Source of the DNA: Minisyncoccota bacterium | Lineage (GTDB): Bacteria > Patescibacteriota > Minisyncoccia > Phycocordibacterales > UBA9973 | Assembly (NCBI GenBank): GCA_041659845.1 | Contig: JBAZXM010000001.1 | Location: 124 to 64,123 of the forward strand | Length of the DNA stretch: 64,000 bases | Reading direction: 5' to 3' | In this document: one piece after another, positions 575-63,209 of the stretch | How positions within the stretch are numbered: the stretch's first letter is position 1 | How the letters are laid out: the number at the start of each line of letters is the position of its first letter | Translations under genes and position numbers: made by a program | The notes under the pieces: model-generated | The model's database searches: none | The model's input: only the letters and a program-made list of their open reading frames with translations | Told to the model about the DNA's origin: nothing

Positions 575-1613
575 AAAGATTTATGAAATGTTTTCAAATG
601 ATATCGGTATAGACTTGGGTACTGCAAATACTCTGGTTTATTTGAAGGGGCATGGCATCGTTATTAACGAGCCGTCTGTGGTTGCAGTTAATCAGAAGAC
701 AGGTAGAATTGTCGCTGTGGGTGCAGAAGCTAAGCAGATGATAGGCAGGACGCCTGCTCACATCAAAGCGGTTCGCCCGCTCGTCGAAGGAGTGATTTCT
801 GACTTCGAAGTGACAGAAGAAATGCTTTCGTATCTTATAAATAAAGCTGAAAAAATTTCCAAAAAATTCATCCGTCCTCGTGTGGTCATCGGCGTGCCGT
901 CTGGTATTACGAATGTCGAGACTCGCGCAGTTTACGATGCTGCTCGCAGTGCCGGTGCGCGCGATATTCACATCATCGAAGAGCCGATGGCTGCAGCGAT
1001 AGGTATTCGACTTCCAATTAAAGATCCTGTCGGTTCCATGATTATAGACATCGGTGGTGGGACGACTGACATCGCAGTGATTTCTCTCGGCGGTATTGTG
1101 CGCTCAAAGAATTTGAAAATTGCAGGAGATCGTTTGAATAATGACATCATTTCTTACTTGCGCGATGAGTTTAAGCTGTTAATCGGAGAGAAAACCGCTG
1201 AGAATGTAAAAATGGCAATTGGCTCGGTTGTCCCAGGTAAATTTATGGAGGCTGAAGTGCGCGGGCGCGATATGGTTACCGGATTGCCACGCGAAGTCAT
1301 AATCACTGATTCGGATGTTCGTGAAGCAGTTTCTCAGTCAATTTCAAATTTTGTTGAGGGTGTGAAGGAGGTGCTCGAAACTACTCCGCCTGAAATTCTT
1401 TCGGATGTCATGCACCGAGGCATAATTCTTGTTGGCGGTGGGGCACTTATCCAAGGTCTCGATTCACTTTTACAGAATACACTGAAAATACCTATATATG
1501 TGGCAGATGATCCGCTTTCAGCGGTGGCACGCGGTACAGGCGTAGTCTTGGAAGATTTGGAATTTTTTAGAGAAGTATTAGTTCCGCTTCACGATGAATT
1601 ACCTCCTAGATAG
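567..1613 (+). CDS. mreB: Rod shape-determining protein MreB (actin-like ATPase)
   Basis: MLKK..MFSNDIGIDLGTANTLVY N-terminus nearly identical in pattern to E. coli MreB; phosphate-binding DIGGGTTD and VGGGALIQGLD motifs. Confidence 0.92.
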   Translation: MLKKIYEMFSNDIGIDLGTANTLVYLKGHGIVINEPSVVAVNQKTGRIVAVGAEAKQMIGRTPAHIKAVRPLVEGVISDFEVTEEMLSYLINKAEKISKKFIRPRVVIGVPSGITNVETRAVYDAARSAGARDIHIIEEPMAAAIGIRLPIKDPVGSMIIDIGGGTTDIAVISLGGIVRSKNLKIAGDRLNNDIISYLRDEFKLLIGEKTAENVKMAIGSVVPGKFMEAEVRGRDMVTGLPREVIITDSDVREAVSQSISNFVEGVKEVLETTPPEILSDVMHRGIILVGGGALIQGLDSLLQNTLKIPIYVADDPLSAVARGTGVVLEDLEFFREVLVPLHDELPPR

Positions 1614-2388
1614 AAAAATAAAAAGGCAGAAAGTTTGGATTGTCGCATTCGGCGTATTTATTATTGCACTGCTCATAATATTTAGGATGAATGTAATGCA
1701 CGCACTGAGTTATGGCGCATATGGAATTGCTCGTCCATTTATTATTGTTGGAGAAAAAGTGGGAAAGACTATTCGTTCACATACTTTTGTTTTTCAAACT
1801 AAAAACTCTCTAATGAAGGATAATCAAAATCTTACTGAGCAACTGAGAGAAAGTAATTTAAAACTCGCTGATCATCAAATGCTTGCCGATGAAAATACTG
1901 CACTCAAAGCTATTCTTGGCCGTAAGGATGATCGTGTGTTGGTACTCGCCGGTATTTTGGAAAAACCAAACAGATCTTTGTACGATACGTTGATTATTGA
2001 TATTGGTTCAGATAAAGACATTCTCGTTGGCAATAAAGTTTTCGCCTCTGGTGATATTTTGATCGGTGAAATTACAGATGTATATAATCGATCGGCGAAA
2101 GTTTCTCCCTATTCAACTCCTAGTGAAAAACACGATGCAGTTATTTCAGCACTTGGAATAACAGGCGAAGCAATAGGTCGTGGAAATGGTAATTTTGAAA
2201 TAACAGTACCTCACGATGTCATAATTGAGCCTGGTATGGCGGTCGTCATGCCAGGTGTTAATCAAGTTCTCTTGGGTACTGTTGATCAAATTCTTTCTGA
2301 TCCGCGAGATCCGTTTCAAAAGGTTTTGTTTCGTTCTCCAGTCAATATTCAAGAGCTCTCCTATATAGAGGTGGAAGTGTCTATATGA
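1594..2388 (+). CDS. mreC: Rod shape-determining protein MreC (N-terminal TM, coiled coil, beta-barrel domain)
   Basis: Immediately downstream of mreB with 20-nt overlap; N-terminal TM helix, coiled-coil (LTEQLRESNLKL), C-terminal MreC-like beta domain. Confidence 0.65.
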   Translation: MNYLLDRKIKRQKVWIVAFGVFIIALLIIFRMNVMHALSYGAYGIARPFIIVGEKVGKTIRSHTFVFQTKNSLMKDNQNLTEQLRESNLKLADHQMLADENTALKAILGRKDDRVLVLAGILEKPNRSLYDTLIIDIGSDKDILVGNKVFASGDILIGEITDVYNRSAKVSPYSTPSEKHDAVISALGITGEAIGRGNGNFEITVPHDVIIEPGMAVVMPGVNQVLLGTVDQILSDPRDPFQKVLFRSPVNIQELSYIEVEVSI

Positions 2389-3593
2389 TCGGATTTAAAT
2401 TTACTATTCATAAAAAACTGGACGGCACACTTGGAAGAGTAGGCTCTTATGAAACTCCGCACGGTGTCATCCAAACGCCGGCTTTTGTAACAGTAGGTAC
2501 TAAGGCAACAGTGAAATCTCTTAATCCTGATCAAGTAAAAGACGCAGGCGCTGATGTTGTACTTGCAAATACGTATCATTTATATTTACAGCCAGGGGAT
2601 GAAATTATCGCGGGAGCCGGAGGTCTTGGTAAATTTATGAACTGGTCTGGTCCCACAATGACAGACTCCGGCGGATTCCAAGTATTTTCTCTTGGTGCCG
2701 CTTATGGTAAAGAAATTTCAAAAGTTGTTAAAATTACCGATCCGTCGCTGTTAATTCCGGAAAGATTCGATGACAGTGATGCACCACGACTGGCAAAGAT
2801 TGGCCAAGATGGTGTATCTTTTAAATCGCATTTGGACGGATCCATCCACTACATCACACCCGAGAAATCAATTGAAATCCAGCATAATCTTGGTGCGGAT
2901 ATTATTTTTGCATTCGATGAATGTACATCACCAACGGAAGATCTACGTTACCAGGAAGAAGCGCTTGAGCGCACACATCGTTGGGCAGGGCGTTGCCTCG
3001 AATATCACAATTCAAAAGATAATTCAAAATACCAGGCATTATTCGGAATTGTTCAGGGTGGAAGAGATGAAAATTTGAGGAAAAAAAGCGCACAAGTTAT
3101 CAGTGATATGGGTTTCGATGGCTTCGGCATTGGTGGATCTTTCGCTAAAGAAGATATGTCGACGGCTGTGAAGTGGGTGAATGAAATTTTACCGGAAGAA
3201 AAGCCTAGGCACTTGCTCGGCATTGGTGAACCCGAAGATCTTTTTATGGGCATAGAAAACGGTGTTGATTTTTTTGATTGCGTCTTGCCGACTCGCTTGG
3301 GAAGAAATGGAACAATCTATACAAAAAATGGGAAAATCATAATCATGAATGCTAAATTTCGAAATGATTTTACTCCGATCGAAGACGATTGCGAATGTTA
3401 CACTTGCAAGGGCTTCATTAAAGCTTATGTCGCTCATCTTTTTCACAGCAAAGAAATGCTCGCCGGAACATTAGCTTCGATTCACAATCTTCATTTTATA
3501 GTGAACCTCGTTAAAAAAATCCGAGCATCGATTATCGACGGAACATTCTATGAATTTAAGGAAAGTTTTCTGAGGGGATACGGAAAAGAATAG
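2385..3593 (+). CDS. tgt: Queuine tRNA-ribosyltransferase
   Basis: LGRVGSYETPHGVIQTPAFVTVGT, DSGGFQ, and zinc site CECYTCKGF...H near C-terminus. Confidence 0.9.
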   Translation: MIGFKFTIHKKLDGTLGRVGSYETPHGVIQTPAFVTVGTKATVKSLNPDQVKDAGADVVLANTYHLYLQPGDEIIAGAGGLGKFMNWSGPTMTDSGGFQVFSLGAAYGKEISKVVKITDPSLLIPERFDDSDAPRLAKIGQDGVSFKSHLDGSIHYITPEKSIEIQHNLGADIIFAFDECTSPTEDLRYQEEALERTHRWAGRCLEYHNSKDNSKYQALFGIVQGGRDENLRKKSAQVISDMGFDGFGIGGSFAKEDMSTAVKWVNEILPEEKPRHLLGIGEPEDLFMGIENGVDFFDCVLPTRLGRNGTIYTKNGKIIIMNAKFRNDFTPIEDDCECYTCKGFIKAYVAHLFHSKEMLAGTLASIHNLHFIVNLVKKIRASIIDGTFYEFKESFLRGYGKE

Positions 3594-11809: not shown

Positions 11810-12313
11810 ATGATTATACAAAACACATTAGCATATTATCGAAAACGTAAGGGCTACTTACAAACAGACACAATTAAAGTTTTAGGATTTTGTAGTACAA
11901 ACAGAATTTCTCGCTGGGAGAAAGGTACAGCGGTTCCAAGTATTCATAATTTAGCAAAGCTTTGTGCACTTTATGATGTTTCGCCTAAAACCCTGTATCC
12001 AGTTTTATTCGATGATTCAGAGAAACAAATAAATAAAAAGAAGTCTGATCTAGGGATTGTTTACCCATTCAGACTTTTATTAAAAGTATCAATCGCTGAA
12101 GTGCTTAAAATCAAGGAAGTATATGATCATATTTTTAAATCTCTGACAAATATTAATGAGTTTGCGTGTTTTAAGGAGAGTTATTTTTGGGAGCTATTTA
12201 TGCGACTGATCGATATTTTAATACTGCGACAAGTAGTGGCAATCAACCAAATTTATTCTCTCAGTCAAGCAGTGGAGGAATGGCAGGTAATGTGGCTAAT
12301 TTTAATTGTATAA
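11810..12313 (+). CDS. XRE-family helix-turn-helix transcriptional regulator (HTH confined to first ~65 aa; 3' part of ORF overlaps the next CDS and may not be translated as drawn)
   Basis: LQTDTIKVLGFCSTNRISRWEKGTAVPSIHNLAKLCALYDVSPKTLY = Cro/C1-type HTH. Confidence 0.55.
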   Translation: MIIQNTLAYYRKRKGYLQTDTIKVLGFCSTNRISRWEKGTAVPSIHNLAKLCALYDVSPKTLYPVLFDDSEKQINKKKSDLGIVYPFRLLLKVSIAEVLKIKEVYDHIFKSLTNINEFACFKESYFWELFMRLIDILILRQVVAINQIYSLSQAVEEWQVMWLILIV

Positions 12314-13818
12314 TCGGAAACAATGGAACAGCAAATGCAGGAAGTTTTACAATTAATTATTATGTCTGTAGTTCTTCATCTTTCATAAGTCCAACTTGGA
12401 TTGGCTCAGATTATGTTTCAGGTTTAGTAGTTAGCTCAACATACAGTTCGCAAATAAGTATTGATTTATGTAATGCAGGCTTAGCAAATGGCACATATTA
12501 TCTTGGTTTTTATATTGACTATTCTAACCAAGTCGGTGAAAGTAATGAAAATGATAACAATACTTTTTACAACTCGAATCCCTATTCAATAAATTGTACG
12601 AGTGGAGGAAAGCCAAATTTATATGATATTTCAGGAAGTGCTGGGCTTACTGGTAATGTTGCTCTTTACAGTTATACTATTAGCAATAATGGTACTGGTA
12701 ATGCAGGAGGTTTTTATGTAAATTGTTATGCGTGCACTTCACCCTCTTTTACAAGTCCAATTTTGGTTGGTTCAGATTATGTTTCAGGTTTAGCTGTCGG
12801 CACCTCTTATACTTCGGAAATTAGTGTTGATCTTTGTAATTCTGGGTTGGCAACAGGTTCATATTATCTTGGTTTTTATATTGATTATTCCAACCAAATT
12901 GCTGAGAGTAATGAAAATGATAATAATACTTTTTATAGTTTCAGCGCAACGACAATAAATTGCTCTGGTAGTGGTGGTGGTTGCACTTATTCTATTTCAC
13001 CTCCAACTGGTCATGCTACTTTTCTTTTTGGTGGCGGCTCAGACTGGACTTATGTTACAACTAACAATAGCACATGTGCATGGACAGCTAGTACTCCAAA
13101 TAATTGGATAACTGTTTTAAACATTAGTGGAATTGGGAATAGCTATATTAATTATCAAGTTTCTACAAACACATCTCCTTATCCAAGAACAGGAACTATT
13201 GATGTAATGGGATTGATTTGTACAATATATCAAGATGGTCAAAATTGCCCGGTAACTGTTAATCCAATAACTGATAATATTTCAAACTCAAGTGGTAATT
13301 ATTCTTTTCATATGACTACTGGTCTTGGTTGTGGTCATTCAGTATTAACCAGCGATCCATCTTGGCTTACAATATTAAGCGTAGTTGGAGATACACTCGT
13401 TAGTGATCCCTCATGGCTTACAATAATAAATGTAGTTAGTAATACAGTTGTGAACTATCATGTTAATTCTAACCTTAGTTCACCTCGAATTGGTATAATA
13501 ACTGTTGATACTGTTTTACACTATGTTAATCAAAGCGGTATAACTAGATTAAACGAAATTAGTGCTAGTAAAGAATTTTTTATTTATCCAAACCCAACTG
13601 ATGGGGTTATTAATATTGTTGGTAAGAATTTTAAAAATGATGATTATAAAATAAAAATTGCAAATTTATTAGGAGAAATAATGAATGAAATAGATTTTCA
13701 TGTAAGCAATAATATCATTGTCAAACAAATTGATTTAAAACAACTACCAAGCGGCATTTATTTTCTAAATGTTTTTACGAAGGAAACTATGCAAATATTC
13801 AAAATAAATAAATTATAA
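12187..13818 (+). CDS. Repeat protein: 2x CARDB-like ~110-aa repeats + short SDPSWLT(I/L) duplicated segment + C-terminal T9SS-type (Por_Secre_tail-like) sorting domain; TTG start after AAGGAGAG RBS, no signal peptide
   Basis: Two near-identical repeats ending ...YYLGFYIDYSNQ(V/I)(G/A)ESNENDNNTFY (E.NE.NN CARDB signature); C-terminal FFIYPNPTDGVINIVGKNF...GIYFLNVFTKETMQIFKINKL. Confidence 0.65.
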   Translation: MGAIYATDRYFNTATSSGNQPNLFSQSSSGGMAGNVANFNCIIGNNGTANAGSFTINYYVCSSSSFISPTWIGSDYVSGLVVSSTYSSQISIDLCNAGLANGTYYLGFYIDYSNQVGESNENDNNTFYNSNPYSINCTSGGKPNLYDISGSAGLTGNVALYSYTISNNGTGNAGGFYVNCYACTSPSFTSPILVGSDYVSGLAVGTSYTSEISVDLCNSGLATGSYYLGFYIDYSNQIAESNENDNNTFYSFSATTINCSGSGGGCTYSISPPTGHATFLFGGGSDWTYVTTNNSTCAWTASTPNNWITVLNISGIGNSYINYQVSTNTSPYPRTGTIDVMGLICTIYQDGQNCPVTVNPITDNISNSSGNYSFHMTTGLGCGHSVLTSDPSWLTILSVVGDTLVSDPSWLTIINVVSNTVVNYHVNSNLSSPRIGIITVDTVLHYVNQSGITRLNEISASKEFFIYPNPTDGVINIVGKNFKNDDYKIKIANLLGEIMNEIDFHVSNNIIVKQIDLKQLPSGIYFLNVFTKETMQIFKINKL

Positions 13819-18517: not shown

Positions 18518-21500
18518 ATGTCAACTATTTTTAAACATACCAAACTCTTTTTCAAACGAAACTCCATTCTTATCGTTTCGCTTGCTTCATTTGCGATCTT
18601 CTCCTCAGGATTACAACTCCTAGCATCATTCTCTCCTGGTCAAACACTAGATCCGAACTGTACCCCGGGATCAGTAGACTGCACCGTAGATGTCAGTAAT
18701 ACTCTTTCTAAAGGAACTTCATGGACTTCACGCACCAGCGCAGCGGATAATGATTGGAATGGCGTCGCATATGGCAATGGCCTCTTCGTGGCTGTTGCTA
18801 ATTCCGGTATTGGTAATCGTGTCATGACTTCACCCGATGGCATCAATTGGACAATCCGCACAAGTGCTTCTAACAATGCTTGGCGTGACATTACTTACGG
18901 CAACGGACTATTTGTGGCGGTTTCTCAGGATGGTGTAGGCAACCGCGTCATGACTTCACCTGACGGTATCACATGGACTTCACGTACCAGTGCGGCGGAT
19001 AATCAATGGCTTGGCGTCACTTACGGCAATGGCCTGTTCGTAGCCGTGTCTTTTGATGGCACCGGCAATCGTGTCATGACATCACCTGACGGTATTACAT
19101 GGACATCAAGAACAAGCGCAGCGGATAATAACTGGAGTAATATCACCTACGGCAACGGACTATTTGTGGCGGTAGCGCAAACCGGTACCGGCGACCGCGT
19201 CATGACTTCACCTGACGGTATCACCTGGACATCCCGCACCAGTGCGGCAGATAATGATTGGCTTGGCGTCACCTACGGCAATGGTCTTTTTGTAGCGGTA
19301 GCGCAAACCGGCACCGGCAACCGCGTTATGACCTCTCCAGACGGTATCACATGGACTTCACGCACTAGTGCGGCGGATAATACTTGGCGTTCAGTAGTAT
19401 ATGGAAATGGGCTTTTTGTAGGAGTTAGCTCTACCGGCACCGGCAACCGCGTTATGACCTCGCCAGACGGCATTACGTGGACAATTCGTACTAGCGCCGC
19501 GGATAACGGCTGGGATACAATTACCTATGGCAATGGCATGTTTGTTGCCGTAGGCTTTTCCGGCACCTCCAACCGTGTCATGACCTCCGGTAAAACCGAC
19601 TACATTCCATTTTCTCCGAATAATATTTTCCAAGGGGGAATGAATATTAACGGACTTGTCGGTATTGGAGGATCACCATCAGAAAATCTTACTATTACTA
19701 CATCTGACCTGGCTACAAATTTAACTTTTGGTATCAGAGCATTAACAGCTGGAGGTGCTTCATCAAGATCTATTTTTACTCAAAATGCTACAACAGGAGC
19801 ATTAACTCTTGGTGTGGATGTGGGATTAAATGGAACAGCAAGAGAATTTATTATTAATACCGGTTCGACAGAAAGAATGCGAATTGAATCTACGGGATTT
19901 GTAGGTATTAATGTAAACGCAACGTCACAGCCAGCATATCCTAATGCTAAATATATATTAGATGTTGCCGGCCCGACTATATTGGTTAGAAATTCAGCAG
20001 GAGGTAGATTCCTTGCAGAAGATACTGATGTTGCAGATGCAAGCAGTCCTTTTGCTTATTTTCAAAGTGACGGGGGAGTTATTAAAATAGGGAATGCAAA
20101 TAGAAATGCGGGGACAGGACTAACTACTGGAAGTGTAGATAGAATGACAATATTGGCTAATGGCAACCTCGGCATCGGGACGACTTCCCCCACCCAAAAA
20201 CTAGATGTTACGGGTTCTGGTAGATTCATAGGAACAGGCACTTCTGTTTTGACAGGAAGTATAGATCCAACAGCTTCCACCTCTGTCGTCGGAGTAGGAA
20301 CATTATTTACTACAGAATTAGCTGTGGGGGATAGTATTACTGTTAACGCAGAAACAAGAAGGGTAACAGTTATAACTGACGCTCTTAATCTTACTGTAGA
20401 TACCGCTTTTACTGATACCGCCAACGACACTTCGCCAGATAAACTAGTTCCTGTTTTGGATATTCAAAGCAGTATGGCTCAAATTTCAACAACGTTAAAG
20501 GTTTCAAACACTAGTGCAAGTGGTGGAAACATTTTACAGATGGATAGAGTTAATAATTCAAGAGCAAATGCTATAAATTTCACTACATTAGGAGCTTCAG
20601 ACTGGTATATGGGAGTATTGCGAAACGCAGGCAATCCTACCCAAACATTCGGTTTGAGTTTTGGTGATGCCAATTTGACCACGAATGGTTTTGTGGTGAA
20701 TAGTACTGGTAAATTTGGAATTGGAACGACTACTCCAACTACTCTTCTCTATGTCGGCAATTCATCAGTTTCAGGTATTGTTGCGACTTTTGAAAATTCA
20801 ACAGGAGTTTGCACAATCAATCCGACCACTTCTTCTGTCGGCTGTTCGTCCGACCAAAGTTTGAAACATGATATTACTACGCTCTCAAATTCAATGGATA
20901 AAATCCGCGCTCTTCGTGGAGTTAATTTCAAATGGAACGTTGATCAAGATTCTGACCCAATGCGAATCGGCTTCATCGCTCAAGAAGTGCAGTCTATTGT
21001 GCCAGAGCTCGTTTCCGATATGCCCAATGGAAAACTCGGAGTCAATTATGCAGGATTCACTCCACTCCTCATTGAAGGTATGAAAGATCTTGACCTCCGC
21101 TTGAAATCTCTGGAAACCCTTGATGACGGAACAGGTTCTTCACCTCTGAAGAAACTCATTATGGATTATCTTTTGAATACAGAGGAGAAGATTATGAATG
21201 GCATTGTCCGCGTGCAGGAACTCATCACTAACAAACTCACTGTTGGAAGTTCTTCACAGCCTGCAGGGGTGACATTGTTTGATCAAGTCACATCGAGTCC
21301 ATACTGTATCTCGGTTGCAAATGGAACACTCACGACGCTTTCAGGTGTGTGTGGTACTGCGGCAACACCATCCTCTCCTTCGATAGGCTCAGGATCTCCG
21401 ACAACCCCACCACCGAGCGATCCACTACCATCCGACCCTGATCCGTCGCCAGGAGGCGAGGAAGTACCTCCAACACCTTCTGATGAGAGCGTTACTCCAC

Positions 21501-21538
21501 CGGCTGATATTCCACCATCCGAACCTGTGGTTGAATAA
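18518..21538 (+). CDS. Large surface fibre-like protein: signal/TM anchor, 8x 40-aa BNR(Asp-box)-type repeats, beta-rich central region, C-terminal Peptidase-S74 intramolecular chaperone (auto-proteolytic) domain, Pro/Ser/Thr-rich tail
   Basis: Repeats RVMTSPDGITWTSRTSAADNxWxxVTYGNGLFVAV (S-x-D-G-x-T-W Asp-box); C-terminus SSDQSLKHDITTL...NFKWNVD....IGFIAQEVQSIVPELV...L.V.Y..LIEGMKDL matches endosialidase/tail-spike chaperone domain. Confidence 0.7.
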   Translation: MSTIFKHTKLFFKRNSILIVSLASFAIFSSGLQLLASFSPGQTLDPNCTPGSVDCTVDVSNTLSKGTSWTSRTSAADNDWNGVAYGNGLFVAVANSGIGNRVMTSPDGINWTIRTSASNNAWRDITYGNGLFVAVSQDGVGNRVMTSPDGITWTSRTSAADNQWLGVTYGNGLFVAVSFDGTGNRVMTSPDGITWTSRTSAADNNWSNITYGNGLFVAVAQTGTGDRVMTSPDGITWTSRTSAADNDWLGVTYGNGLFVAVAQTGTGNRVMTSPDGITWTSRTSAADNTWRSVVYGNGLFVGVSSTGTGNRVMTSPDGITWTIRTSAADNGWDTITYGNGMFVAVGFSGTSNRVMTSGKTDYIPFSPNNIFQGGMNINGLVGIGGSPSENLTITTSDLATNLTFGIRALTAGGASSRSIFTQNATTGALTLGVDVGLNGTAREFIINTGSTERMRIESTGFVGINVNATSQPAYPNAKYILDVAGPTILVRNSAGGRFLAEDTDVADASSPFAYFQSDGGVIKIGNANRNAGTGLTTGSVDRMTILANGNLGIGTTSPTQKLDVTGSGRFIGTGTSVLTGSIDPTASTSVVGVGTLFTTELAVGDSITVNAETRRVTVITDALNLTVDTAFTDTANDTSPDKLVPVLDIQSSMAQISTTLKVSNTSASGGNILQMDRVNNSRANAINFTTLGASDWYMGVLRNAGNPTQTFGLSFGDANLTTNGFVVNSTGKFGIGTTTPTTLLYVGNSSVSGIVATFENSTGVCTINPTTSSVGCSSDQSLKHDITTLSNSMDKIRALRGVNFKWNVDQDSDPMRIGFIAQEVQSIVPELVSDMPNGKLGVNYAGFTPLLIEGMKDLDLRLKSLETLDDGTGSSPLKKLIMDYLLNTEEKIMNGIVRVQELITNKLTVGSSSQPAGVTLFDQVTSSPYCISVANGTLTTLSGVCGTAATPSSPSIGSGSPTTPPPSDPLPSDPDPSPGGEEVPPTPSDESVTPPADIPPSEPVVE
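18720..19600 (+). repeat. Coding tandem repeat, 120-bp period x ~8 (near-identical at DNA level)
   Basis: ggtatcacatggacttcacg... blocks recur every 120 nt; explains spurious antisense ORFs 19273..19633. Confidence 0.8.
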
Positions 21539-21556
21539 TGGTGTATACTAAAAGAA

Positions 21557-23452
21557 GTGATAGACCATAATGAAAAAATTACATATTTCGCCGAGACTGA
21601 TTTTAGGAATAAACAAGCACGCTTTGGTATAAAGGCAAAAGACCGCACTCGCCACATGTATGTCATCGGTAAGACAGGCATGGGTAAATCAACCATACTT
21701 GAAAATATGGCGATTCAAGATATTCAGAACGGCGAAGGTCTTGCATTCATCGATCCCCACGGCGGAACTGCTGAAAAATTACTTGATTATGTTCCCGAAC
21801 ACCGTATTAAGGATGTCGTCTATTTTGCGCCGTTTGATGCTGAATATCCGATGTCATTCAATGTTCTTGAGGATATCGGCGCAGACAAACGCCACCTGGT
21901 TGTTTCCGGCTTAATGAGTGTCTTTAAGAAAATCTGGCAGGATGCATGGAGCGCTCGCATGGAGTACATTCTAAACAACACATTACTCGCATTACTCGAA
22001 TATCCGGGCTCAACTTTGATGGGAGTGAACAAAATGCTTTCGGATAAAGATTTCCGAAAAAAGATTGTCGATAACGTACAAGACCCGGCAGTGAAATCAT
22101 TCTGGGTTGATGAATATGCAAAGTATACGGAAAAGTTCGCTGCTGAGGCGACGCCGGCTATTCAGAACAAAGTCGGTCAGTACACATTAAACCCACTCAT
22201 TCGAAACATCATCGGTCAGCCGAAATCATCATTTGATATTCGCGAGTTGATGGATACGAAGAAAATTTTCATTATCAATCTCTCTAAGGGTCGTATCGGC
22301 GAGCAGAATATGAATTTGCTCGGCGGCATGTTCGTTACGAAAATCTACCTAGCCGCGATGTCGCGTGCCGACCTTTCCGAAGCGGAAATCGCCAAGCTTC
22401 CACCATTTTATCTTTATGTAGACGAGTTCCAAAATTTCGCCAACGAATCTTTTTCTCAAATTCTTTCCGAAGCTCGAAAGTACAAATTCGCTCTTACAGT
22501 CGCCAACCAATATGTCACTCAAATGGTCGAGGAAGTCCGCGATGCTATTTTCGGCAACGTCGGATCGATAATTTGCTATCGCGTCGGTCCCGCCGATGCT
22601 GACCTTTTTGAAAAAGAATTTGCTCCGCAGTTCACAGCTGAGGATATAGTAAACCTAGGCCAGTTCCAAATGTATTTACGCTTGATGATTGACGGTGTCG
22701 GCTCGAAGCCATTTTCTGCTCGTGGTATGGCGCCTATTCCGCGGCCGGAAATTTTCTATCGAGAGCAAATAATCGAGAGTTCTCGAAAAGTTTTCGCCCA
22801 CACTCGTGCTGAAGTCGAAGAGGGAATAAAAGCCTGGCACGATACAATTTCTCAAAAGCCGGAAAGGCCGAAACGTGAAGAAATGCCTGCTGGCGGAAAT
22901 GAGTACCAGAGGCCTAGAGAATTTTCCGACCGGCAATTCGAAAGGCCGAGGCAGAATTTCCCGCCGAGAAATGATGCTCCGCGCAGGTTTGAAGGCGAAA
23001 ATAACAGGAGAAGTTTTCCACCTACCCCACCTCGCCAGGAAGCGCCAATTCACAAGCCTTTTGTTAAAGTTTTTGAAAAACCTCAAAAATTCGAACAGCC
23101 TCGCGCTTCTTCTCCGAAATTAAAATCACTTTTGAATGAGCTCGAAAAAAGCGAACCTTCTACGAAGTCTACTATGCCCGCATCTATGCCAGTACTTCGT
23201 CCAGAACCTGAGAAAAAAACTCTTTCCCTTCATAATCTAAATAAAGCTTCAACAGGGAAATCACTCAACCTTTCCGGGCTCAAGGATGTACTTGCAAGCG
23301 CATTGAAGGATATGCCGGAAAAGCCACGCCCAGCACCAGCGCCAGCACCTAAAAAAGAAAGCGAGCCGGAGGAAAAAATCACAACAAACGAAACACAAAA
23401 AAAACAAACAAAAGAAGTCCCTGAAGATGTTCTTAGAAAAATTTTGGAATGA
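21557..23452 (+). CDS. TraD/VirD4/TrwB-like type-IV coupling-protein ATPase without N-terminal TM segment, with ~200-aa Arg/Pro/Glu-rich low-complexity C-terminal tail
   Basis: RHMYVIGKTGMGKSTILENM...LAFIDPHGG (H..V.G.TG.GKS / DPkGe pattern), later LYVDEFQNFA and KYKFALTVANQYVTQM (QS..QL-like) ; tail ERPKREEMPAGGNEYQRPREFSDRQFERPRQNFPPRNDAPRRFE... Confidence 0.6.
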   Translation: MIDHNEKITYFAETDFRNKQARFGIKAKDRTRHMYVIGKTGMGKSTILENMAIQDIQNGEGLAFIDPHGGTAEKLLDYVPEHRIKDVVYFAPFDAEYPMSFNVLEDIGADKRHLVVSGLMSVFKKIWQDAWSARMEYILNNTLLALLEYPGSTLMGVNKMLSDKDFRKKIVDNVQDPAVKSFWVDEYAKYTEKFAAEATPAIQNKVGQYTLNPLIRNIIGQPKSSFDIRELMDTKKIFIINLSKGRIGEQNMNLLGGMFVTKIYLAAMSRADLSEAEIAKLPPFYLYVDEFQNFANESFSQILSEARKYKFALTVANQYVTQMVEEVRDAIFGNVGSIICYRVGPADADLFEKEFAPQFTAEDIVNLGQFQMYLRLMIDGVGSKPFSARGMAPIPRPEIFYREQIIESSRKVFAHTRAEVEEGIKAWHDTISQKPERPKREEMPAGGNEYQRPREFSDRQFERPRQNFPPRNDAPRRFEGENNRRSFPPTPPRQEAPIHKPFVKVFEKPQKFEQPRASSPKLKSLLNELEKSEPSTKSTMPASMPVLRPEPEKKTLSLHNLNKASTGKSLNLSGLKDVLASALKDMPEKPRPAPAPAPKKESEPEEKITTNETQKKQTKEVPEDVLRKILE

Positions 23453-23504
23453 TTAACAATTTATTTTTAAGATATTAGTGCCCAGCATAATTTTGCTAAA
23501 CCAT

Positions 23505-24971
23505 ATGAAAAAATATTTTCTGTTTGCTGTGATTCTGTTCTCTTGTTCCGCTTTTCAAGTACATGCGCAATTTGTATTTACTGAAATAATGTACGATTTG
23601 CCCGGGACTGACACTGACCATGAATGGGTTGAAATACAGAATACAGGAGCCACTGATGCGGATGTAACTGATTGGAAATTTAATGATGGCTCTAATCATA
23701 ATTTAAATACTCCGCCGACAAACGGGTCTCAAGGTTCTTTTACAATTCCTGTCGGTGAGTATGCTATTTTAACTGCTGACGCGGTGAAATTTTTGTCTGA
23801 TTATTCCGGCTACGCTGGTACTGTTATCGATACAGTAATGAGTTTGAACAATACAACAGATACTCTTAAATTGATTGATAAAAACGGGATAGAAATCGAT
23901 TCCGTAACATACGATTCATCAATCGGTGCATCGGGTGATGGAAATACGATTCAAAAATCCAGCTCTTCTTGGATAGCGAGCTCTCCTACTGTGGGAATTT
24001 CTTATTCGGTATCTTCGCAAGGCGGAGGAACTGGCACTCAAGGGGTGACTAGCGGAACCACATCTGTAACTTCCCCCTCTATCCCAATGACCGCGAAAGA
24101 CGACGGCACTCCTAAAATAACTGCGGATATTATTTTGAAAAACACTCCGATTACGGGAGTAGATGCTATTTTTGATGCGGCTGTGATCGGCTACAGTAAA
24201 GAAAAGATTACTCGCGGGAAGTTCGTTTGGAATTTTGGCGACGGAGTGACGGAAGAAACTTCCGAAATAAAAAAGATGGAGCATATTTACGATTATCCGG
24301 GAGATTATGTCGTGATGCTTGAATATTACCCCAATTCTTATAGCACTGATCCTGATGCCACAGACCGACTTGTTATAAGTGTGCTTAAACAACAAGTTAT
24401 TATTTCATCTATAGGTTTCGATGCAAATCCGTATGTTGAAATTTCAAATACCGGAACTCACGAAATTGATCTCTCAAGATTCATTTTACGAGCATCTTCG
24501 GGTGCACAATTTGTGTTTCCCAAAAATACTATTGTACTAGGAAATAAAAAAATAATCCTTTCTCCCAAGATGACACATTTCACCGCAGATGATGTGAAAA
24601 CTGCAACACTTTTATATCCGAGCGGGGAAGTCGCATTTGCATATGAGTCTGCTTTAGAGAAAATAGAAAAGCAGCCAAGAGAACAAGTACAAGATGAGAA
24701 AATCATTCAGGTGGAAGATGCAACGAAATCAATTATCGCAACTAATAATGAGGAAGTTAAAAGTTCGTCTATCTTAAATTCAAGTATTTCTCCAGAAAAT
24801 CTTCAAGCGAATGCATTTAACGCACTACCCGAATCAACTTCAAGTTCTTTTGGATTGTGGGCTTTCGGACTTATCGTTTTGATGGCACTTGCCGGGGGAG
24901 CTGTTGTATTTTTGAGATTTAATTACAGTAAAGTCCAGTCAAAGGCAGATGATTTCGAAATTCTTGAATAA
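23505..24971 (+). CDS. Extracellular membrane-anchored protein: signal peptide, Lamin-tail domain (LTD), PKD-like domain, second LTD, C-terminal TM anchor (ORF-track start 23478; ATG at 23505 precedes signal peptide)
   Basis: FVFTEIMYDLPGTDTDHEWVEIQNTGATDADVTDWKF (LTD), GKFVWNFGDGVTEETSE...YPGDYVVML (PKD), NPYVEISNTGTHEIDLSRFIL (LTD), LWAFGLIVLMALAGGAVVFL anchor. Confidence 0.65.
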   Translation: MKKYFLFAVILFSCSAFQVHAQFVFTEIMYDLPGTDTDHEWVEIQNTGATDADVTDWKFNDGSNHNLNTPPTNGSQGSFTIPVGEYAILTADAVKFLSDYSGYAGTVIDTVMSLNNTTDTLKLIDKNGIEIDSVTYDSSIGASGDGNTIQKSSSSWIASSPTVGISYSVSSQGGGTGTQGVTSGTTSVTSPSIPMTAKDDGTPKITADIILKNTPITGVDAIFDAAVIGYSKEKITRGKFVWNFGDGVTEETSEIKKMEHIYDYPGDYVVMLEYYPNSYSTDPDATDRLVISVLKQQVIISSIGFDANPYVEISNTGTHEIDLSRFILRASSGAQFVFPKNTIVLGNKKIILSPKMTHFTADDVKTATLLYPSGEVAFAYESALEKIEKQPREQVQDEKIIQVEDATKSIIATNNEEVKSSSILNSSISPENLQANAFNALPESTSSSFGLWAFGLIVLMALAGGAVVFLRFNYSKVQSKADDFEILE

Positions 24972-32251: not shown

Positions 32252-35200
32252 ATGAAGCAATACGATCACCTAAAAATCGAAAAGAAATGGCAGAAGGAAT
32301 GGGAGGCGAAGAAGGTTTACAAGACTGCTAATCCCGGCAAAATGAAAAAGCATTATGTGCTTGATATGTTTCCATACCCGTCCGGTGCGGGCCTTCATGT
32401 CGGCCATCCACGCGGATATATTGCAAGTGATGTATATGCGCGCATGAAGCGCATGCAAGGCTTCAATGTTCTTCACCCTATGGGCTTTGACTCATTCGGA
32501 TTGCCGGCAGAGCAATATGCAATACAAACAAAGAAGCACCCAGGGCCTTTCACTGAAAAGCTTGTGGAGCTCTACAAGAAGCAGCTTGAGATTATAGGCT
32601 TCTCATATGATTGGAGCAGGGAAGTCGCGACGCACAGGCCTGAATATTACAAATGGACGCAGTGGATATTTTTAAAACTCTATGATGCCTGGTATGACCA
32701 AACAAAAGATAAAGCGCGCGATATCAGTGAGCTGGTAAAAATTTTTAATAAAAATGGCAATGAAAATGTGAATGCTGTGTGTGATCAAAACACACCAACT
32801 TTTTCCGCGAAAGAATGGAAGCAGATGAGCGAGATGGAAAAGCAGAATATGCTCATGAAATATCGCTTGGCATACGAAGGCTATAGCGAAGTGAATTGGT
32901 GCTCGAAGTTAGGAACGGTGCTTGCGAATGATGAAATTGTAGATGGGCCTGACGGCAAGCCAGTCTCCGAGCGCGGCGGATTCGGAGTAGAAAAGAAATC
33001 CATGCGACAGTGGTTTATGAGAATAACTGCATATGCAGATAGATTACTTTCAGGCCTCGAAGGTCTTGATTGGTCATCACATATAAAAGAAATACAGAAG
33101 AATTGGATAGGGAAGAGTGAGGGGTCGGAGATCAGTTTTAAAATTGTTTCTGGAGATAAAAAAGATCTAGATAATCCCTTAGGTAGGAGAACCGACCTAG
33201 GATCTATTACAGTTTTCACTACAAGGGCTGATACGCTTTTCGGCGTCACCTATGTTGTTCTTGCGCCGGGGCATTTATTTCTTGAAAATATTAAAACTAG
33301 AATTTCAAATTGGAAAGAAGTTGAAAAATATCTTGATGTAATAAAAAACAAATCTGAAGAAGACAGAATAAAGGAAGGTGAAAAAACAGGTATTGAATTA
33401 AAGGGTATCATGGCAATCAATCCTGCAAATGGAGAAGTGGTACCTGTCTGGATAGCTGATTATGTCTTGGCAAATTACGGTACTGGTGCAGTAATGGCTG
33501 TGCCTGCACACGATGAGCGTGATTTCGAATTTGCGAAGAAATATAAATTACCGATTCGTGATGTTGTAGCAAAAATGATTGGCGAACATCATCATGAAAA
33601 TAATATTCGTGACGTTGCAGAGGGTGTCATTATTAAAGACGACCAGGTTCTTGTAATGGAATATAAAAATCAATATGGTTTGCCGGGTGGAGGAATTGAA
33701 GAAGGTGAAACTCCTGAGCAAGCATTATTAAGAGAAATCAGAGAAGAAATCGGGTATACAGATGTTGAAATTGTCGAATATCTAGGACAAGCAAATCGTT
33801 ATTATTTCTCGGATCGAGATCAAAAGAAAAAAGTAAGACATGCATATGGATATGTAGTAAAAATACTAAGTAACAAAAAAAACCCTACTGCTCCTCATGA
33901 AATTGATAAGCCTGTATGGCTCCCTATATCGGAAGCAATTCAAAAAGTTCAACAGAGTCCAATCTATTACCAAAGTAATTTTATTGACCGGGCGTTTAGT
34001 GGTATGGGGCAATGTTTTGTTGATAATGGCGTTTTGATTCAATCAGGGCAATTTGACAGCTTAACTTCTGAAGAAGCTCGTAAGAAAATTACCGAATTTG
34101 TCGGAGGTAAATTGATCACTAAATACAAAATGCGCGACGCGATTTTTGCTCGGCAGAGATATTGGGGCGAGCCGATTCCGCTTTCGACTGACAAGGATGG
34201 GATTATTCATGAAGTCAAAAAACTTCCACTTAAACTCCCAAATGTGAAATCATACGAGCCGGCAGGCACGGGTGAGAGTCCGCTTGCGGGAGTGAAGGAT
34301 TGGGTCAAGCATGGCTACGAGACAAATACCATGCCTGGTTGGGCGGGAAGCTCATGGTATTTCTTGCGTTACATGGACCCAAAAAATAAAAGTGCAATAG
34401 CAAGCAAACAAGCGATCAAATACTGGAAAGATGTGGACATGTATGTCGGCGGTGCAGAGCACGCAACAGGGCACTTGTTGTACTCGCGTTTCTGGCACAA
34501 ATTCTTGAAAGATATCGGCATTGCACAGACAGAAGAACCATTTAAAGCGCTTCGCAACCAAGGCTTGATAGGCGGTGCTGATGGGCGCAAGATGAGTAAG
34601 CGCTGGGGGAATGTCATAAACCCTGATGAGATTGTAAAAACTTATGGCGCTGATACACTCCGTGTCTACGAAGCATTCATGGGACCTTTTGATCAATCAC
34701 TTCCGTGGTCCACAGAGAGCATTATCGGCTCACGCAGATTTATTGAAAAAGTTTGGAGGATGGGGGAGAAAACAATTCTCGCTTCGCATAATTCTTTTCA
34801 AAAAGGTCCTCGGGTCGCCCGTGCAGGTTTATCAGGGAAGAGCGGGCTCGACCAGACCGTTTTTGAAAAGAACTCTGCTGCGCTTAAGAAAGTGCTTCAC
34901 AAAACTATTAAAAAAGTTACGGAAGACATTGCGAATTTTAATTTCAATACCGCAGTCTCAGCGATGATGATTTGCGCGAATGAAATGGAAAAAGCTGAAT
35001 ATGTTTCCGTGGAAGATTTCAAAAAATTCTTACAAATTTTAGCACCATTTGCCCCACATGCGTCTGAAGATCTTTGGCGTGAGCTCGGTGAGAAAAAATC
35101 AATCCATCTTTCAGAATGGCCTCTGTATGATAAGAAAAAGATTATTGATGACACTATCACTATTGCCATTCAGGTTAATAGCAAAGTCCGCGCAGAAATT

Positions 35201-35341
35201 TCTATTCCTATTGATATGAGCGAAAATGATCTAAAAAAACTTGTTTTGGAAAATCCTGCGACCAAGCAATGGACAGAAGGCAAGGAAATAAAGCGAATTA
35301 TCCATGTCAAAGGCAAGCTCGTCAATATAGTTATTGCTTGA
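32252..35341 (+). CDS. leuS: Leucyl-tRNA synthetase carrying an in-frame ~140-aa Nudix-hydrolase domain insertion (nt ~33565..34015) between the editing domain and the leucyl-specific/KMSKS region
   Basis: HVGHPRGY (HIGH), KMSKRWGN (KMSKS), GTGAVMAVPAHDERDFEFA editing-domain end; insertion contains perfect Nudix box GGGIEEGETPEQALLREIREEIGY. Confidence 0.9.
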   Translation: MKQYDHLKIEKKWQKEWEAKKVYKTANPGKMKKHYVLDMFPYPSGAGLHVGHPRGYIASDVYARMKRMQGFNVLHPMGFDSFGLPAEQYAIQTKKHPGPFTEKLVELYKKQLEIIGFSYDWSREVATHRPEYYKWTQWIFLKLYDAWYDQTKDKARDISELVKIFNKNGNENVNAVCDQNTPTFSAKEWKQMSEMEKQNMLMKYRLAYEGYSEVNWCSKLGTVLANDEIVDGPDGKPVSERGGFGVEKKSMRQWFMRITAYADRLLSGLEGLDWSSHIKEIQKNWIGKSEGSEISFKIVSGDKKDLDNPLGRRTDLGSITVFTTRADTLFGVTYVVLAPGHLFLENIKTRISNWKEVEKYLDVIKNKSEEDRIKEGEKTGIELKGIMAINPANGEVVPVWIADYVLANYGTGAVMAVPAHDERDFEFAKKYKLPIRDVVAKMIGEHHHENNIRDVAEGVIIKDDQVLVMEYKNQYGLPGGGIEEGETPEQALLREIREEIGYTDVEIVEYLGQANRYYFSDRDQKKKVRHAYGYVVKILSNKKNPTAPHEIDKPVWLPISEAIQKVQQSPIYYQSNFIDRAFSGMGQCFVDNGVLIQSGQFDSLTSEEARKKITEFVGGKLITKYKMRDAIFARQRYWGEPIPLSTDKDGIIHEVKKLPLKLPNVKSYEPAGTGESPLAGVKDWVKHGYETNTMPGWAGSSWYFLRYMDPKNKSAIASKQAIKYWKDVDMYVGGAEHATGHLLYSRFWHKFLKDIGIAQTEEPFKALRNQGLIGGADGRKMSKRWGNVINPDEIVKTYGADTLRVYEAFMGPFDQSLPWSTESIIGSRRFIEKVWRMGEKTILASHNSFQKGPRVARAGLSGKSGLDQTVFEKNSAALKKVLHKTIKKVTEDIANFNFNTAVSAMMICANEMEKAEYVSVEDFKKFLQILAPFAPHASEDLWRELGEKKSIHLSEWPLYDKKKIIDDTITIAIQVNSKVRAEISIPIDMSENDLKKLVLENPATKQWTEGKEIKRIIHVKGKLVNIVIA

Positions 35342-60352: not shown

Positions 60353-60709
60353 ATGATATCGAAAAGCTCAAAAAGCCTACTAGGCTATTACTTTGATTTT
60401 TGTGAAAAATCTTTGTTTTTAAAAGATTTTTTTGAAAAAATTTATGATAAGAAAAAACTCTCAGACGATGATTTATGCATGCTTTTAGGAATAATTGAGA
60501 AAGGAGAAAAAGATCTGGAAAGTGTTTGTTTTTGGCGAGAACAAATACTAGAAGATTTTAAAAAAGAAAAAGTGGAATTGAAAAGAAAACAAATACTCAT
60601 TTTCATTCAAAGAAATAATGCAATGAAAAAAGAAATTCAAGTTTGTAGGCAGATTCTAAAAAAGCTTAATGAAAAATGGAATTCTATTGAAGGATTCGCT
60701 AACGAATAA
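60353..60709 (+). CDS. Hypothetical protein (118 aa)
   Basis: ORF followed by bidirectional terminator. Confidence 0.4.
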   Translation: MISKSSKSLLGYYFDFCEKSLFLKDFFEKIYDKKKLSDDDLCMLLGIIEKGEKDLESVCFWREQILEDFKKEKVELKRKQILIFIQRNNAMKKEIQVCRQILKKLNEKWNSIEGFANE

Positions 60710-60721
60710 AATATTTCTTTA

Positions 60722-60755
60722 TTCGCAATCTTAAACCCATCTTTTTAAAGAAGAT
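60722..60755. terminator. Bidirectional terminator (60353..60709 + / priA-like -)
   Basis: aacccatctt tttaaag aagatgggtt + T4. Confidence 0.7.
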
Positions 60756-60785
60756 GGGTTTTTTAATATTCTGTTAGTTAAATTA

Positions 60786-62741
60786 CTAAAACAAATTCTC
60801 CGGGTTTACTTCGATTTGAAACGATGGAGGGAGGGAAGTGAGAAGGTCGGAAAGAGTGGTATCGAATGTGCCTGTACCTGCGAGGATAGGCTTTTGCCAT
60901 GTTTCAGGCTTGATTTTGAGAATCATGAGTGTGGTGTCGAAACCTTTTATTTTTGGAATGCCAGCGGGGATGATGTCAGGTGCGTAATTGGCAAAAATCT
61001 TTGCAAGGTTATCCTTCACCGCAATTGTGTCGAATGGTTTTGTCTTTACTGTAACTTTTATAAGTGTCGAGAATGGCGGATAGTTGAGCATTTTGCGATC
61101 GTGTAGTTCTCCACGATAAAAATCAGTGAGATTACCGGAATGCAGATATCCAAGAATTTGCTCTTCAGGGTTTTTCGTCTGGATTAGGAGCGGCATATCT
61201 GAGAGCGCCTGTAAGATGGCGACCAGCTGGACTATTTTTTCTCCTATGCGGAATGACGGCAAGGAAAAGAGCGAGTCAAAAGAAATAATCGCAACAGCCC
61301 CAACCTTCTCATTAAGGTGCGAGAGCGCAAGCTCTGTGCCGACTAATATTGCGCCTTTGGTTTTGTAAAATTGCTCGGCAATTTTTTTGCCTTGGGCCCT
61401 CGTCTTTACCTTTTCCGCATCGATGATAAAGATTGAAATATCTGGGAAAAGCTTTTTCACCGCTTCCGCTGTATTTTCGGTACCGATGCCGAGTGTGGTC
61501 AAGTTCCAGCTTCCGCAGTTTTTACAGCGAGTTTTCGGATTATATATTTTTTTGCACATCGGACATCTATAAGTAGATCCATTATCTTTTTTAAAAAGTA
61601 TAAGTGGTGCTGTGCAAGTATCACAAAGGACAGTAGTTGAACAGTCATTACAAACAGTTGAAGGCGCGAGACCTTTGCGAAGTGTGAAGAGAAAAATATT
61701 TTGTCCATTTTTTACAACGTCTTCAACTAATCTTTTCGATTCGTCGCTTATTATTCTGAATTCTTTTTTCTCGCCGTCTGTTTTAATATTTGTAGGTACT
61801 ATTATCGGTCTCGCACCATGCAGGCGGAATGATGGCAACGCAAGCTCGGAGAGTTCATGTTCATTGTAGCGTTCGATAGTCTCAGCTCTGACGAGCGTGT
61901 CAGCGAGAATAAGCCGACTTTCGATTTCACTCGCGAAAAGTTCGGCAAATAAACGGAGATCTATGAATGGCCGAGAGATTGTCTTATAAGAGCTTGAGCT
62001 CTCACGTTCTACAATGATGGTGCCCAGGTCTCCACGCGGTATTGAAAGAAAGGGCGCGGTCCCGACGATAATGACAGGATGCAGATTTTTCATGATTGCT
62101 TCATATGATTCAAGTAATTTCTTTTTTGAAAATTCACCGTGGACCAAATATGCATTATCTTCGACCCCTTTCTTTAGGATTTCATGGAAGCGCGTCGCTT
62201 CATGGATGGTCGGCAGGACGAAGAAAATAGATTTCTTACGGGCGAATGATTGGCGTATTTCCATTCGATATGATTCCAATCGCTCTTCATATGCCGCTTG
62301 AAAGATGAGCTTTTCTTTTGAAATGTTTTTCTTCTCATTTTCAAGAAGCATAGATGCGGATAATTTTTCACATGCTTCAAGAAAGATTGTCGGGATTAAT
62401 GCGGTTAAAGCAGATGAAAGAGATGCAGCGTGGATCTTTGCGATACTTTTCACTGCGCAGATAAATGTGGGGGAGAATGGCGGATGTTCGAGTATTTTCT
62501 CTATTTTCTTTAAATGGAATGCGGATGATTTTATTCGTGATTTAGCATCAGCAAGTGGCTCGGAACCTGTGGAAAGGCCTATGATTTTTTTTGTGCGGAC
62601 GCTTGTTATCACAAGCCTGCCAGGCTCTATAGGCTCTGACGAAAAATAAGTAAGCTCTTCTTTAAAGATACCTCGTGCTATCGGGATGATGGTTACTATA
62701 TGCATTACATAAAGGGTAGCATATCGACACTTTGTGTTCAC
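60786..62741 (-). CDS. priA: PriA-like primosomal protein N' with intact Cys4-Cys4 zinc-binding region but no Walker A (GxGKT) and DExH replaced by ERES: predicted ATPase-dead
   Basis: [13 protein letters not shown]...[21 protein letters not shown] zinc-binding motif diagnostic of PriA; segments aligning to helicase motifs Ia-III present ([46 protein letters not shown]) but no GKT/GKS anywhere in 651 aa. Confidence 0.65.
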   Translation of the reverse strand: [651 protein letters not shown]

Positions 62742-62795
62742 CTTTACTTTTCTTTTACTTAGTTCATACTTTAACTAAATCAAAAATGTTCCCTA

Positions 62796-63209
62796 ATGAA
62801 AAAAGTCAAAAAGTGGCTGATTTTGGGAATATTCCTAAAACTCATCCAGGTGATAGGCATATCATTTGTTTATCATCCACTGTTTGTTTTCCTTGAGAAT
62901 TTTAATTTCGGAGGAATATGGCAGCGCTTAGCTCTTCTTGTTGTCATTAATGTAATCTTTATATTTCTCTGGTATCCGCGAGATTCGAAATTAAATGTTT
63001 TACAAATGTTCGCGCTTTCGCTTGCAATTGCATGTGTGCCTACAATTTCGATTGTATTTTCTTTTTCACTGGGATCGGAATTTACTATTGTGATGAAATT
63101 ATGCGGATGGCTGATTGCAATTTTCGTAATAGTGTTCGGTATGGTTCTCCCATTTAAATGGTATAGAAAAGGGGATGGCGAAGATGAGTCCGATAGTTCT
63201 AAAACATAA
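62796..63209 (+). CDS. Hypothetical membrane protein (4 TM helices)
   Basis: Hydrophobic segments; no motif. Confidence 0.45.
   Translation: MKKVKKWLILGIFLKLIQVIGISFVYHPLFVFLENFNFGGIWQRLALLVVINVIFIFLWYPRDSKLNVLQMFALSLAIACVPTISIVFSFSLGSEFTIVMKLCGWLIAIFVIVFGMVLPFKWYRKGDGEDESDSSKT

Follow-up and report, generated by a model that had tools for sequence, protein, structure and literature searches.

The idea of a helicase-dead PriA is already known, with direct experimental precedent in Deinococcus. In PriA of D. radiodurans, the Walker A lysine is replaced by arginine and motifs I and II are poor; the protein has no ATPase or helicase activity, shows near-normal affinity for single-stranded DNA (ssDNA) and forks, binds DnaB, and was termed a pseudohelicase (Lopper et al. 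2015, PMC4504706). A 2018 review in Nucleic Acids Research describes PriA helicase activity as conserved 'except in Deinococcus' (PMC5778457). Here, a stretch of 64,000 nucleotides from a Minisyncoccota bacterium (GenBank assembly GCA_041659845.1, contig JBAZXM010000001.1, positions 124 to 64,123 of the forward strand; hereafter the window) was analyzed for a divergent priA gene on its minus strand. The gene quite likely encodes PriA (primosomal protein N') itself, as the chromosomal ortholog in an uncultured Parcubacteria/Paceibacteria bacterium, and PriA of this whole lineage would be a pseudohelicase. Judged by its motifs, this PriA is probably an independent and more extreme instance of the known pseudohelicase kind in a new lineage.

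In Escherichia coli, exchange of Lys230 for Arg alone abolishes the ATPase of PriA, and the corresponding priA300 (K230R) allele is restart-proficient via PriA-PriB but not via PriA-PriC (PMC5778457). K230A PriA loads DnaB in vitro (PMC10175261), and for the K230R and K230A variants DnaB loading in vitro and restart in vivo have been documented (PMC5778457, PMC10175261, PMC13594977). A 2026 study concludes that, in E. coli, a duplex lagging arm has to be unwound by PriA first; only then does its cysteine-rich region (CRR) move and the preprimosome form, and stable PriB docking requires at least 11 nt of lagging-strand ssDNA (PMC13594977). The tuberculosis literature calls the essential Mycobacterium tuberculosis protein Rv1402, a member of the actinobacterial PriA family, a helicase or helicase loader without comment. 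Literature searches combining PriA with Patescibacteria, CPR, Parcubacteria, Saccharibacteria or related names returned nothing relevant.

In the list of open reading frames (ORFs) of the window, the gene appears as a minus-strand ORF of 651 codons (60786..62741), 98% of which is spanned by homologs. This mechanical ORF is 12 codons longer than the coding sequence, reaching a GTG at 62741. Because homologs open with MKIVTVIPL, the start was placed at the ATG at 62705 (M13 of the ORF; MHIVTIIPI...), which is most likely the true start, giving a protein of 639 aa whose residue numbers are counted from this ATG. The public JGI call for the gene is only 521 aa long, beginning at an internal Met (MLLENEKK...) and lacking the entire 3' DNA-binding domain (3'BD).

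The window protein is a PriA and not a member of some other Cys-rich family, as three lines of evidence agree: it matches TIGR00595 (replication restart helicase PriA, NCBIfam; E=7.4e-64, 216.1 bits), its only significant sequence matches in the PDB are E. coli and Klebsiella PriA (E ~2e-27), and its predicted structure is that of PriA. An AlphaFold2 model built on 56 family sequences (pLDDT 85, pTM 0.82) was aligned by Foldseek over its full length with fork-bound E. coli PriA (8fak_H; TM 0.75, 673 columns), followed by the winged-helix-deletion form of E. coli PriA (6dcr, TM 0.72), while the best non-PriA fold, Mfd, reached TM <=0.39. Little weight is given to the difference between the fork-bound structure 8fak (0.75) and the apo structures (0.70-0.72). 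The TIGR00595 match begins at profile position 13, directly past Walker A. A different Cys-rich family, which the original prediction had named as a possible refutation, was considered and rejected; the weak Pfam matches to RING, zinc-ribbon and CHY models (E >=0.1) are accounted for by the PriA CRR. NCBI frequently labels members of this family 'hypothetical protein', because they score under the curated PriA cutoffs. Curated models thus miss the family, and comparative studies could wrongly score Parcubacteria as lacking PriA.

Every element that serves to bind or hydrolyze ATP, or to couple hydrolysis to unwinding, has been replaced in this protein, namely motifs I, II, III and VI and the Trp and Tyr of the aromatic-rich loop (ARL). 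The gene and the sites of the lost elements are as follows:

60786..62705, minus strand: priA coding sequence, 639 aa plus a TAG stop codon at 60786-60788
62268..62312, minus strand: former motif I (Walker A), in place of E. coli AWLLAGVTGSGKTEVY, located by alignments
61983..62027, minus strand: former motif II (Walker B), DEEH changed to ERES, with Glu233 and Glu235 conserved
61953..61988, minus strand: former ARL, in place of E. coli YKQQEGWRYHAR, located by alignment and conservation
61887..61913, minus strand: former motif III, in place of IILGSATPA, with Asp269 conserved
61176..61229, minus strand: former motif VI, both arginines lost, with a 5-residue deletion

The alignment panel consisted of E. 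coli PriA and six canonical PriAs (from Monoglobus and Listeria, both Bacillota, and from Bacteroides, Fusobacterium, Sinorhizobium and Acaryochloris), the latter taken from chromosomes mislabelled within a plasmid collection. Motifs I, II, III and VI are present in all seven, which represent six phyla; in Bacteroides, motif I reads TASGKT. In the window PriA, the E. coli motif I, AGVTGSGKTEVY, is replaced, with Gln136 standing for Gly224 and Arg142 for Lys230 (E. coli numbering). In the model, strand 1 (132-136) ends at residue 136 and helix 1 (139-155) starts at 139, with pLDDT >90, so that the phosphate-binding loop is reduced to a two-residue turn. At motif II, Glu-x-Glu takes the place of Asp-Glu-Glu, with Glu233 and Glu235 at the positions of Asp320 and Glu322. 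In the adjoining ARL, Trp333 has become an invariant Pro246 and Tyr335 an Ile, and the equivalent of Arg338 is retained; in E. coli, helicase coupling depends on W333 and Y335, whose alanine variants stay at background helicase activity without PriB (PMC5175346). Motif III changes from GSATP to ADTLV, placing Asp269 at the Ser356 position, and the motif VI stretch is replaced by AILQALS, which contains no Arg, followed by a retained Gln-Thr with an invariant T510.

The original prediction had described a protein whose flanking helicase segments align to E. coli PriA, with no GxGKT/S in its 651 residues, ERES in place of DEEH, and a degenerate motif VI. All of this is borne out: the quoted segments align, and the translation is free of GK[ST], G.GK and DExH/D throughout. 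The loss of Walker A and DExH extends further than had been described, taking in motif III, the ARL aromatics and the winged-helix domain. A P-loop hidden in a shifted or alternative frame around 62.2-62.4 kb, named at the outset as a possible refutation, did not materialize at the homologous place when 60401..63000 was scanned in all six frames. The sole [AG]x4GK[ST] match in that scan, GSEKVGKS, lies on the opposite strand at ~60.8 kb, antisense to the 3' end of priA. Moreover, the motif loss is specific to PriA within the window, since other P-loop proteins encoded there, UvrB (GVTGSGKT, DESH), UvrA, LepA and a VirD4-like ATPase, keep their motifs.

The loss is shared across a large family. 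A protein database search returned 462 homologs, and the best 120 of these are ~630-680 aa long, 38-47% identical, and named Nomurabacteria, Wolfebacteria, Paceibacterota, Minisyncoccia and the like. The gene was also found in at least 358 GTDB species genomes (one genome per species, with a single peptide pattern), and the best 80 of these, labelled Nomurabacteria, Paceibacteria or Parcubacteria, were used for locus analyses. The samples for motif loss comprised 120 database homologs, the 80 GTDB loci, 147 representatives at 50% clustering and 109 further homologs. In the comparison with relatives that had been proposed, GxGK[ST] occurs in 0 of 375 database homologs and 0 of the 80 locus-encoded proteins, making the loss common to all of these ~450 sequences. 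With the degenerate lobe-1 segment alone as query, only 786 clusters were matched among 1.84 billion representatives (563 at E <=1e-10), so this segment is a specific signature not shared by canonical PriAs. A search outward from the most divergent representative met only Parcubacteria-labelled genomes.

The residues that took over the old ATP-site positions are close to invariant. Across 186 non-identical sequences, R142 and Y146 are conserved at 100%, E233 and E235 at 99%, and Q136 and D269 at 98%, while the former Gly/Ser positions of the P-loop are among the most variable. In total, 68 positions are at least 97% conserved in the family. RecA-like lobe 1 is conserved at least as well as the other domains (mean entropy 1.56 vs 1.74 overall) and is modelled with pLDDT 90-96. 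Given that the replacement residues are near-invariant and that lobe 1 is as conserved as the rest, the motif loss is a lineage trait under purifying selection, neither decay nor artefact.

Apart from the winged-helix domain, the PriA fold is kept, with the 3'BD, both RecA-like lobes and motif IV, a CRR predicted to hold two zinc ions, and the C-terminal domain (CTD):

62376..62705, minus strand: 3'BD, residues 1-110; PF17764 match weak here, above cutoff in homologs
62316..62375, minus strand: variable linker, residues 111-130, replacing the ~70-residue winged-helix domain of E. coli
61806..62315, minus strand: RecA-like lobe 1 (HD1), residues 131-300, folded and conserved, without ATPase motifs
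61662..61688, minus strand: motif IV, kept (FTLRKGLAP vs E. coli FLNRRGFAP), an ssDNA contact in the PriA pore
61509..61652, minus strand: CRR, residues 352-399, with eight Cys and two predicted zinc ions
61071..61508, minus strand: RecA-like lobe 2 (HD2), residues 400-545, with ILVGTELAL as the motif V region, pLDDT mostly 81-93
60789..61070, minus strand: CTD, residues 546-639, spanned by the full-length Foldseek match to PriA

The full-length structural alignment to PriA includes the 3'BD. The only Pfam signal in the window protein is a sub-threshold match of this domain to PF17764 (16.3 bits, E=0.009), which rises above the cutoff in homologs (30.7 bits in homolog P0010). In a stretch that aligns ambiguously, Tyr20 and Lys66/Lys67 are the probable counterparts of E. 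coli Tyr18 and Lys61, which are listed among the residues of the 3'-end pocket (PMC5778457), and Thr19 probably corresponds to Asp17; Y20 and K67 are at least 97% conserved in the family. The winged-helix domain is replaced by the 20-residue linker, which has low pLDDT (53) and high entropy, and E. coli residues ~110-190 are gapped in all family members. Motif IV, whose residues R427/R428 in E. coli PriA have been tied to ssDNA binding in the pore (PMC13594977), is represented by an at least 97% conserved R343 and an invariant G345. The double Cys4 zinc region was rightly described as intact: its spacing, CxxC-x5-CxxC-x16-CxxC-x9-CxxC, aligns with the E. coli CRR, its eight Cys are invariant in the family, and the pattern recurs in 106 of the 109 further homologs. 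The model shows the PriA arrangement of a CRR inserted in lobe 2 followed by the CTD, in which W603 and P635 are invariant.

Set beside the structures of E. coli and Klebsiella PriA (8fak, 6dcr, 6dgd, 4nl4), the window protein shares the overall fold (TM 0.70-0.75), the order of 3'BD, lobe 1, CRR within lobe 2 and CTD, and the conserved motif IV and eight Cys, but it is only ~18-25% identical and has neither the ATPase motifs nor the winged-helix domain. As a natural protein it resembles two laboratory variants of E. coli PriA combined in one, namely K230R, with which restart proceeds by way of PriA-PriB, and the winged-helix deletion. Residues that dock PriB, like the partners PriB and DnaT, are specific to proteobacteria and are not expected in Parcubacteria. 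Deinococcus-Thermus PriA was compared by its published description. Both have Arg for the Walker A Lys (R142, 100% conserved here) and off-consensus motifs I and II (E-x-E-S at motif II here); in both, fork binding and helicase recruitment are thought to be kept without ATPase, and PriB and DnaT are apparently absent. However, the two belong to different phyla, and the activity was measured in Deinococcus, whereas it is predicted from sequence for the Parcubacteria family. The Parcubacteria protein also goes beyond the published description of Deinococcus PriA in that motifs III and VI, the ARL aromatics and the entire winged-helix domain are gone as well.

A further degenerate group is found among actinobacteria (the Rv1402 family; PRK14873), for which the following loci were compared together with 119 Mycobacteriales PriAs:

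1391..3382 of the Tsukamurella locus: actinobacterial priA
1034..3262 of the Nonomuraea locus: actinobacterial priA

None of these proteins has GxGK[ST] or SAT, and DEEH is essentially absent. Named 'Probable replication restart protein PriA' in UniRef, they resemble the Parcubacteria family in size (~650-670 aa), in having a 3'BD and an eight-Cys CRR, in that Pfam detects only the 3'BD, and in the replacement of the canonical Arg-x-x-Arg of motif VI, which reads WM.A.ALV... where canonical PriA has QVAGRAGR. They differ in having Trp at the Lys230 position, which is Arg in the Parcubacteria family. The window PriA also falls under the cutoffs of NF011451-NF011455, its best score being 107.6 bits for NF011453, where the cutoff is 812. 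The groups compare as follows in reciprocal profile score and in identity over 574 shared columns:

Parcubacteria family vs canonical PriA: 210-232 bits, 21% identity
Actinobacterial vs canonical PriA: 119-160 bits, 21% identity
Parcubacteria family vs actinobacterial PriA: 37-48 bits, 15% identity
Canonical vs canonical PriA: 1078 bits (panel profile vs its own members), 38% identity

Shared ancestry of the two degenerate groups, hinted at by WQALPGEDW vs FQAPLEDR and by apparently common indels, was rejected because each group is nearer to canonical PriA than to the other, although the opposite GC bias of the two may exaggerate the distance between them. The QA..ED resemblance is confined to Mycobacteriales, Nonomuraea having SALPGARGW, and the motif VI indel varies inside Actinobacteria. 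From their sequences, the Parcubacteria and actinobacterial motif losses look like separate events on long branches.

The most likely role of the Parcubacteria protein, as its sequence suggests, is that of an ATP-independent fork sensor and helicase-loading scaffold. It would neither hydrolyze ATP nor translocate. Abandoned forks and D-loops would be recognized via the 3'BD, the lobe surfaces with motif IV, the CRR and the CTD, and PriA would enclose lagging-strand ssDNA and act as a platform that returns DnaB, either directly, as reported for Deinococcus PriA, or via an adaptor. In place of the nucleotide, the conserved Arg/Glu/Asp cluster probably braces the two lobes against each other, and the winged-helix domain is predicted to be dispensable once there is no helicase to orient. 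Since a dead PriA could not unwind a duplex lagging arm, its action would be limited to forks that already expose lagging-strand ssDNA, or another helicase would be required; the same restriction is predicted for restart in these tiny genomes. As the nucleotide motifs are gone family-wide while the protein is strongly constrained, a PriA retained as a scaffold without translocase activity, as originally proposed, remains the best-supported reading. What does not stand is the description of such a PriA as unusual, which is overstated in view of the D. radiodurans pseudohelicase, restart by E. coli K230R and the degenerate actinobacterial PriAs.

A bolder version of this proposal can be put forward only tentatively. 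It holds that the family is a third, independently evolved 'minimal PriA', in which the charge cluster of Gln136, Arg142, Glu233, Glu235 and Asp269 would stand for the nucleotide and lock the lobes and the CRR in an ssDNA-encircling, partner-ready state, a conformation that E. coli PriA would attain only after fork binding or unwinding. As a fork sensor the protein would then be constitutively armed, with no need for ATP or for a winged-helix domain, and repeated loss of the helicase in Deinococcus-Thermus, Actinobacteria and Parcubacteria might represent a general route and not a single oddity.

Several points weigh against a helicase-dead PriA scaffold. In the suggested profile alignment to TIGR00595, the score of the window protein is just under the curated trusted cutoff of 230.35, and the Pfam PriA CRR, PriA_C and helicase models give no match to it. 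The alignment of the 3'BD pocket to E. coli is ambiguous, and the loss of ATPase activity is inferred from sequence alone. No DnaB, loader, SSB, PriB, DnaT or DnaD was recognized among the ~50 annotated ORFs of the window, and no replication partner is a conserved neighbor of priA in the 80 loci. The copy count covers the 64-kb window and, for the 80 relatives, up to ~22 kb per locus. This limited coverage, together with the low identity to canonical PriA (21%, vs 38% among canonical PriAs from seven phyla), would fit a specialized paralog with some other DNA-binding role, accompanied by a canonical ATP-dependent PriA elsewhere in the genome. Such a paralog is unlikely, however, considering that exactly one PriA-like ORF was found per locus and one in the window, that these are reduced genomes of roughly 1 Mb in which the contigs bearing the gene reach 0.7-1.0 Mb, and that the gene, present in so many species, sits in conserved housekeeping synteny. 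In addition, published work takes the degenerate PriAs of Deinococcus and Actinobacteria to be the PriA of the organism.

The absence of replication genes nearby might instead suggest that the protein has left replication restart for another task, such as that of a DNA-binding scaffold in cell division or chromosome handling, given that its neighbors include mreB (divergent, in 71 of the 80 loci), ftsA, ftsZ and translation genes. We consider this very improbable, because all fork-recognition modules of PriA are retained and the neighbors are generic housekeeping genes; in model bacteria, priA also adjoins unrelated genes (rpmE in E. coli; coaBC, def and fmt in Firmicutes). About as improbable is a non-canonical nucleotide site that still supports an active motor or a nucleotide-gated switch. 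Conservation at the old ATP-site positions is among the highest in the protein, so that ligand binding could persist, and a proposal exists of a second, weaker nucleotide site in E. coli PriA (PMC5778457). Yet the glycine-rich loop is gone, its positions are variable and the modelled turn has only 2 residues; the Lys230-to-Arg exchange alone ends the ATPase of the E. coli protein, and here both motif VI arginines are deleted and the coupling Trp and Tyr replaced as well. That the gene is a pseudogene in decay, stems from a sequencing or assembly error or is an ORF by chance, to which the truncated JGI call and the NCBI labels might point, is refuted by the conservation data and has almost no probability left: the ORF is intact, hundreds of independent assemblies encode full-length homologs (38-47% identity), constraint extends to the 68 positions noted above, the structure is confidently predicted, and no frameshifted P-loop exists.

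If the preferred reading of an ATP-independent scaffold holds, Deinococcus, the single exception in the standard review, is joined by Parcubacteria, a large radiation without cultures, in which at least 358 species genomes carry the gene and the proteins form ~560-790 clusters at 50% identity, and together with the actinobacterial cases this would make helicase-dead PriA a recurrent condition. A natural minimal PriA, consisting of the 3'BD, two inert lobes with motif IV, the CRR and the CTD, also helps to define what fork recognition and helicase reloading need.

In gene content the window is ordinary housekeeping DNA of a chromosome, encoding MreB, MreC, Tgt, UvrB, UvrA, UvrC, Ddl, LeuRS, MurJ, LepA, TsaD, Gmk, TruB, TrxB, FtsZ, FtsA, YbeY and S21, followed by priA, and the order priA-S21-YbeY-FtsA-FtsZ-TrxB recurs in ~1/3 of the best 80 related loci. 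The divergent mreB of those 71 loci lies directly upstream of priA, and genes for frr and an RseP-like protease often come after it. Clustering of the neighbors in the 80 loci yielded housekeeping genes only, and the idea of a conserved operon partner that substitutes for PriB, DnaT or DnaD was rejected. In the window itself, the usual mreB position is occupied by an ORF of 137 aa (62796..63209, plus strand), hydrophobic and without a family match, and mreB (567..1613, plus strand) lies ~60 kb from priA, adjoining mreC.

Three other features of the window deserve mention. LeuRS (32252..35341, plus strand; 1029 aa) carries an inserted NUDIX hydrolase domain (Pfam residues 456-564, E=1e-19), located past the editing domain and ahead of the second half of the catalytic domain; its NUDIX box, GGIEEGETPEQALLREIREEIG at residue 480, is intact, and the insertion is an unusual one for a LeuRS. 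The three genes in 18518..24971 (plus strand) encode a Peptidase_S74 (endosialidase chaperone) protein of 1006 aa, a VirD4/TraG-like coupling ATPase of 631 aa and a lamin-tail/PKD protein of 497 aa. Their GC content of 0.42-0.43, vs 0.31-0.38 in the flanks, is one feature of what could be a surface-appendage or mobile-element island. The lowest GC content of the window (0.31) is found at 12187..13818 (plus strand), which encodes a 543-aa protein with CARDB, BACON and Por_Secre_tail domains, the last being a C-terminal sorting signal of type IX secretion that is usually linked with Bacteroidota.

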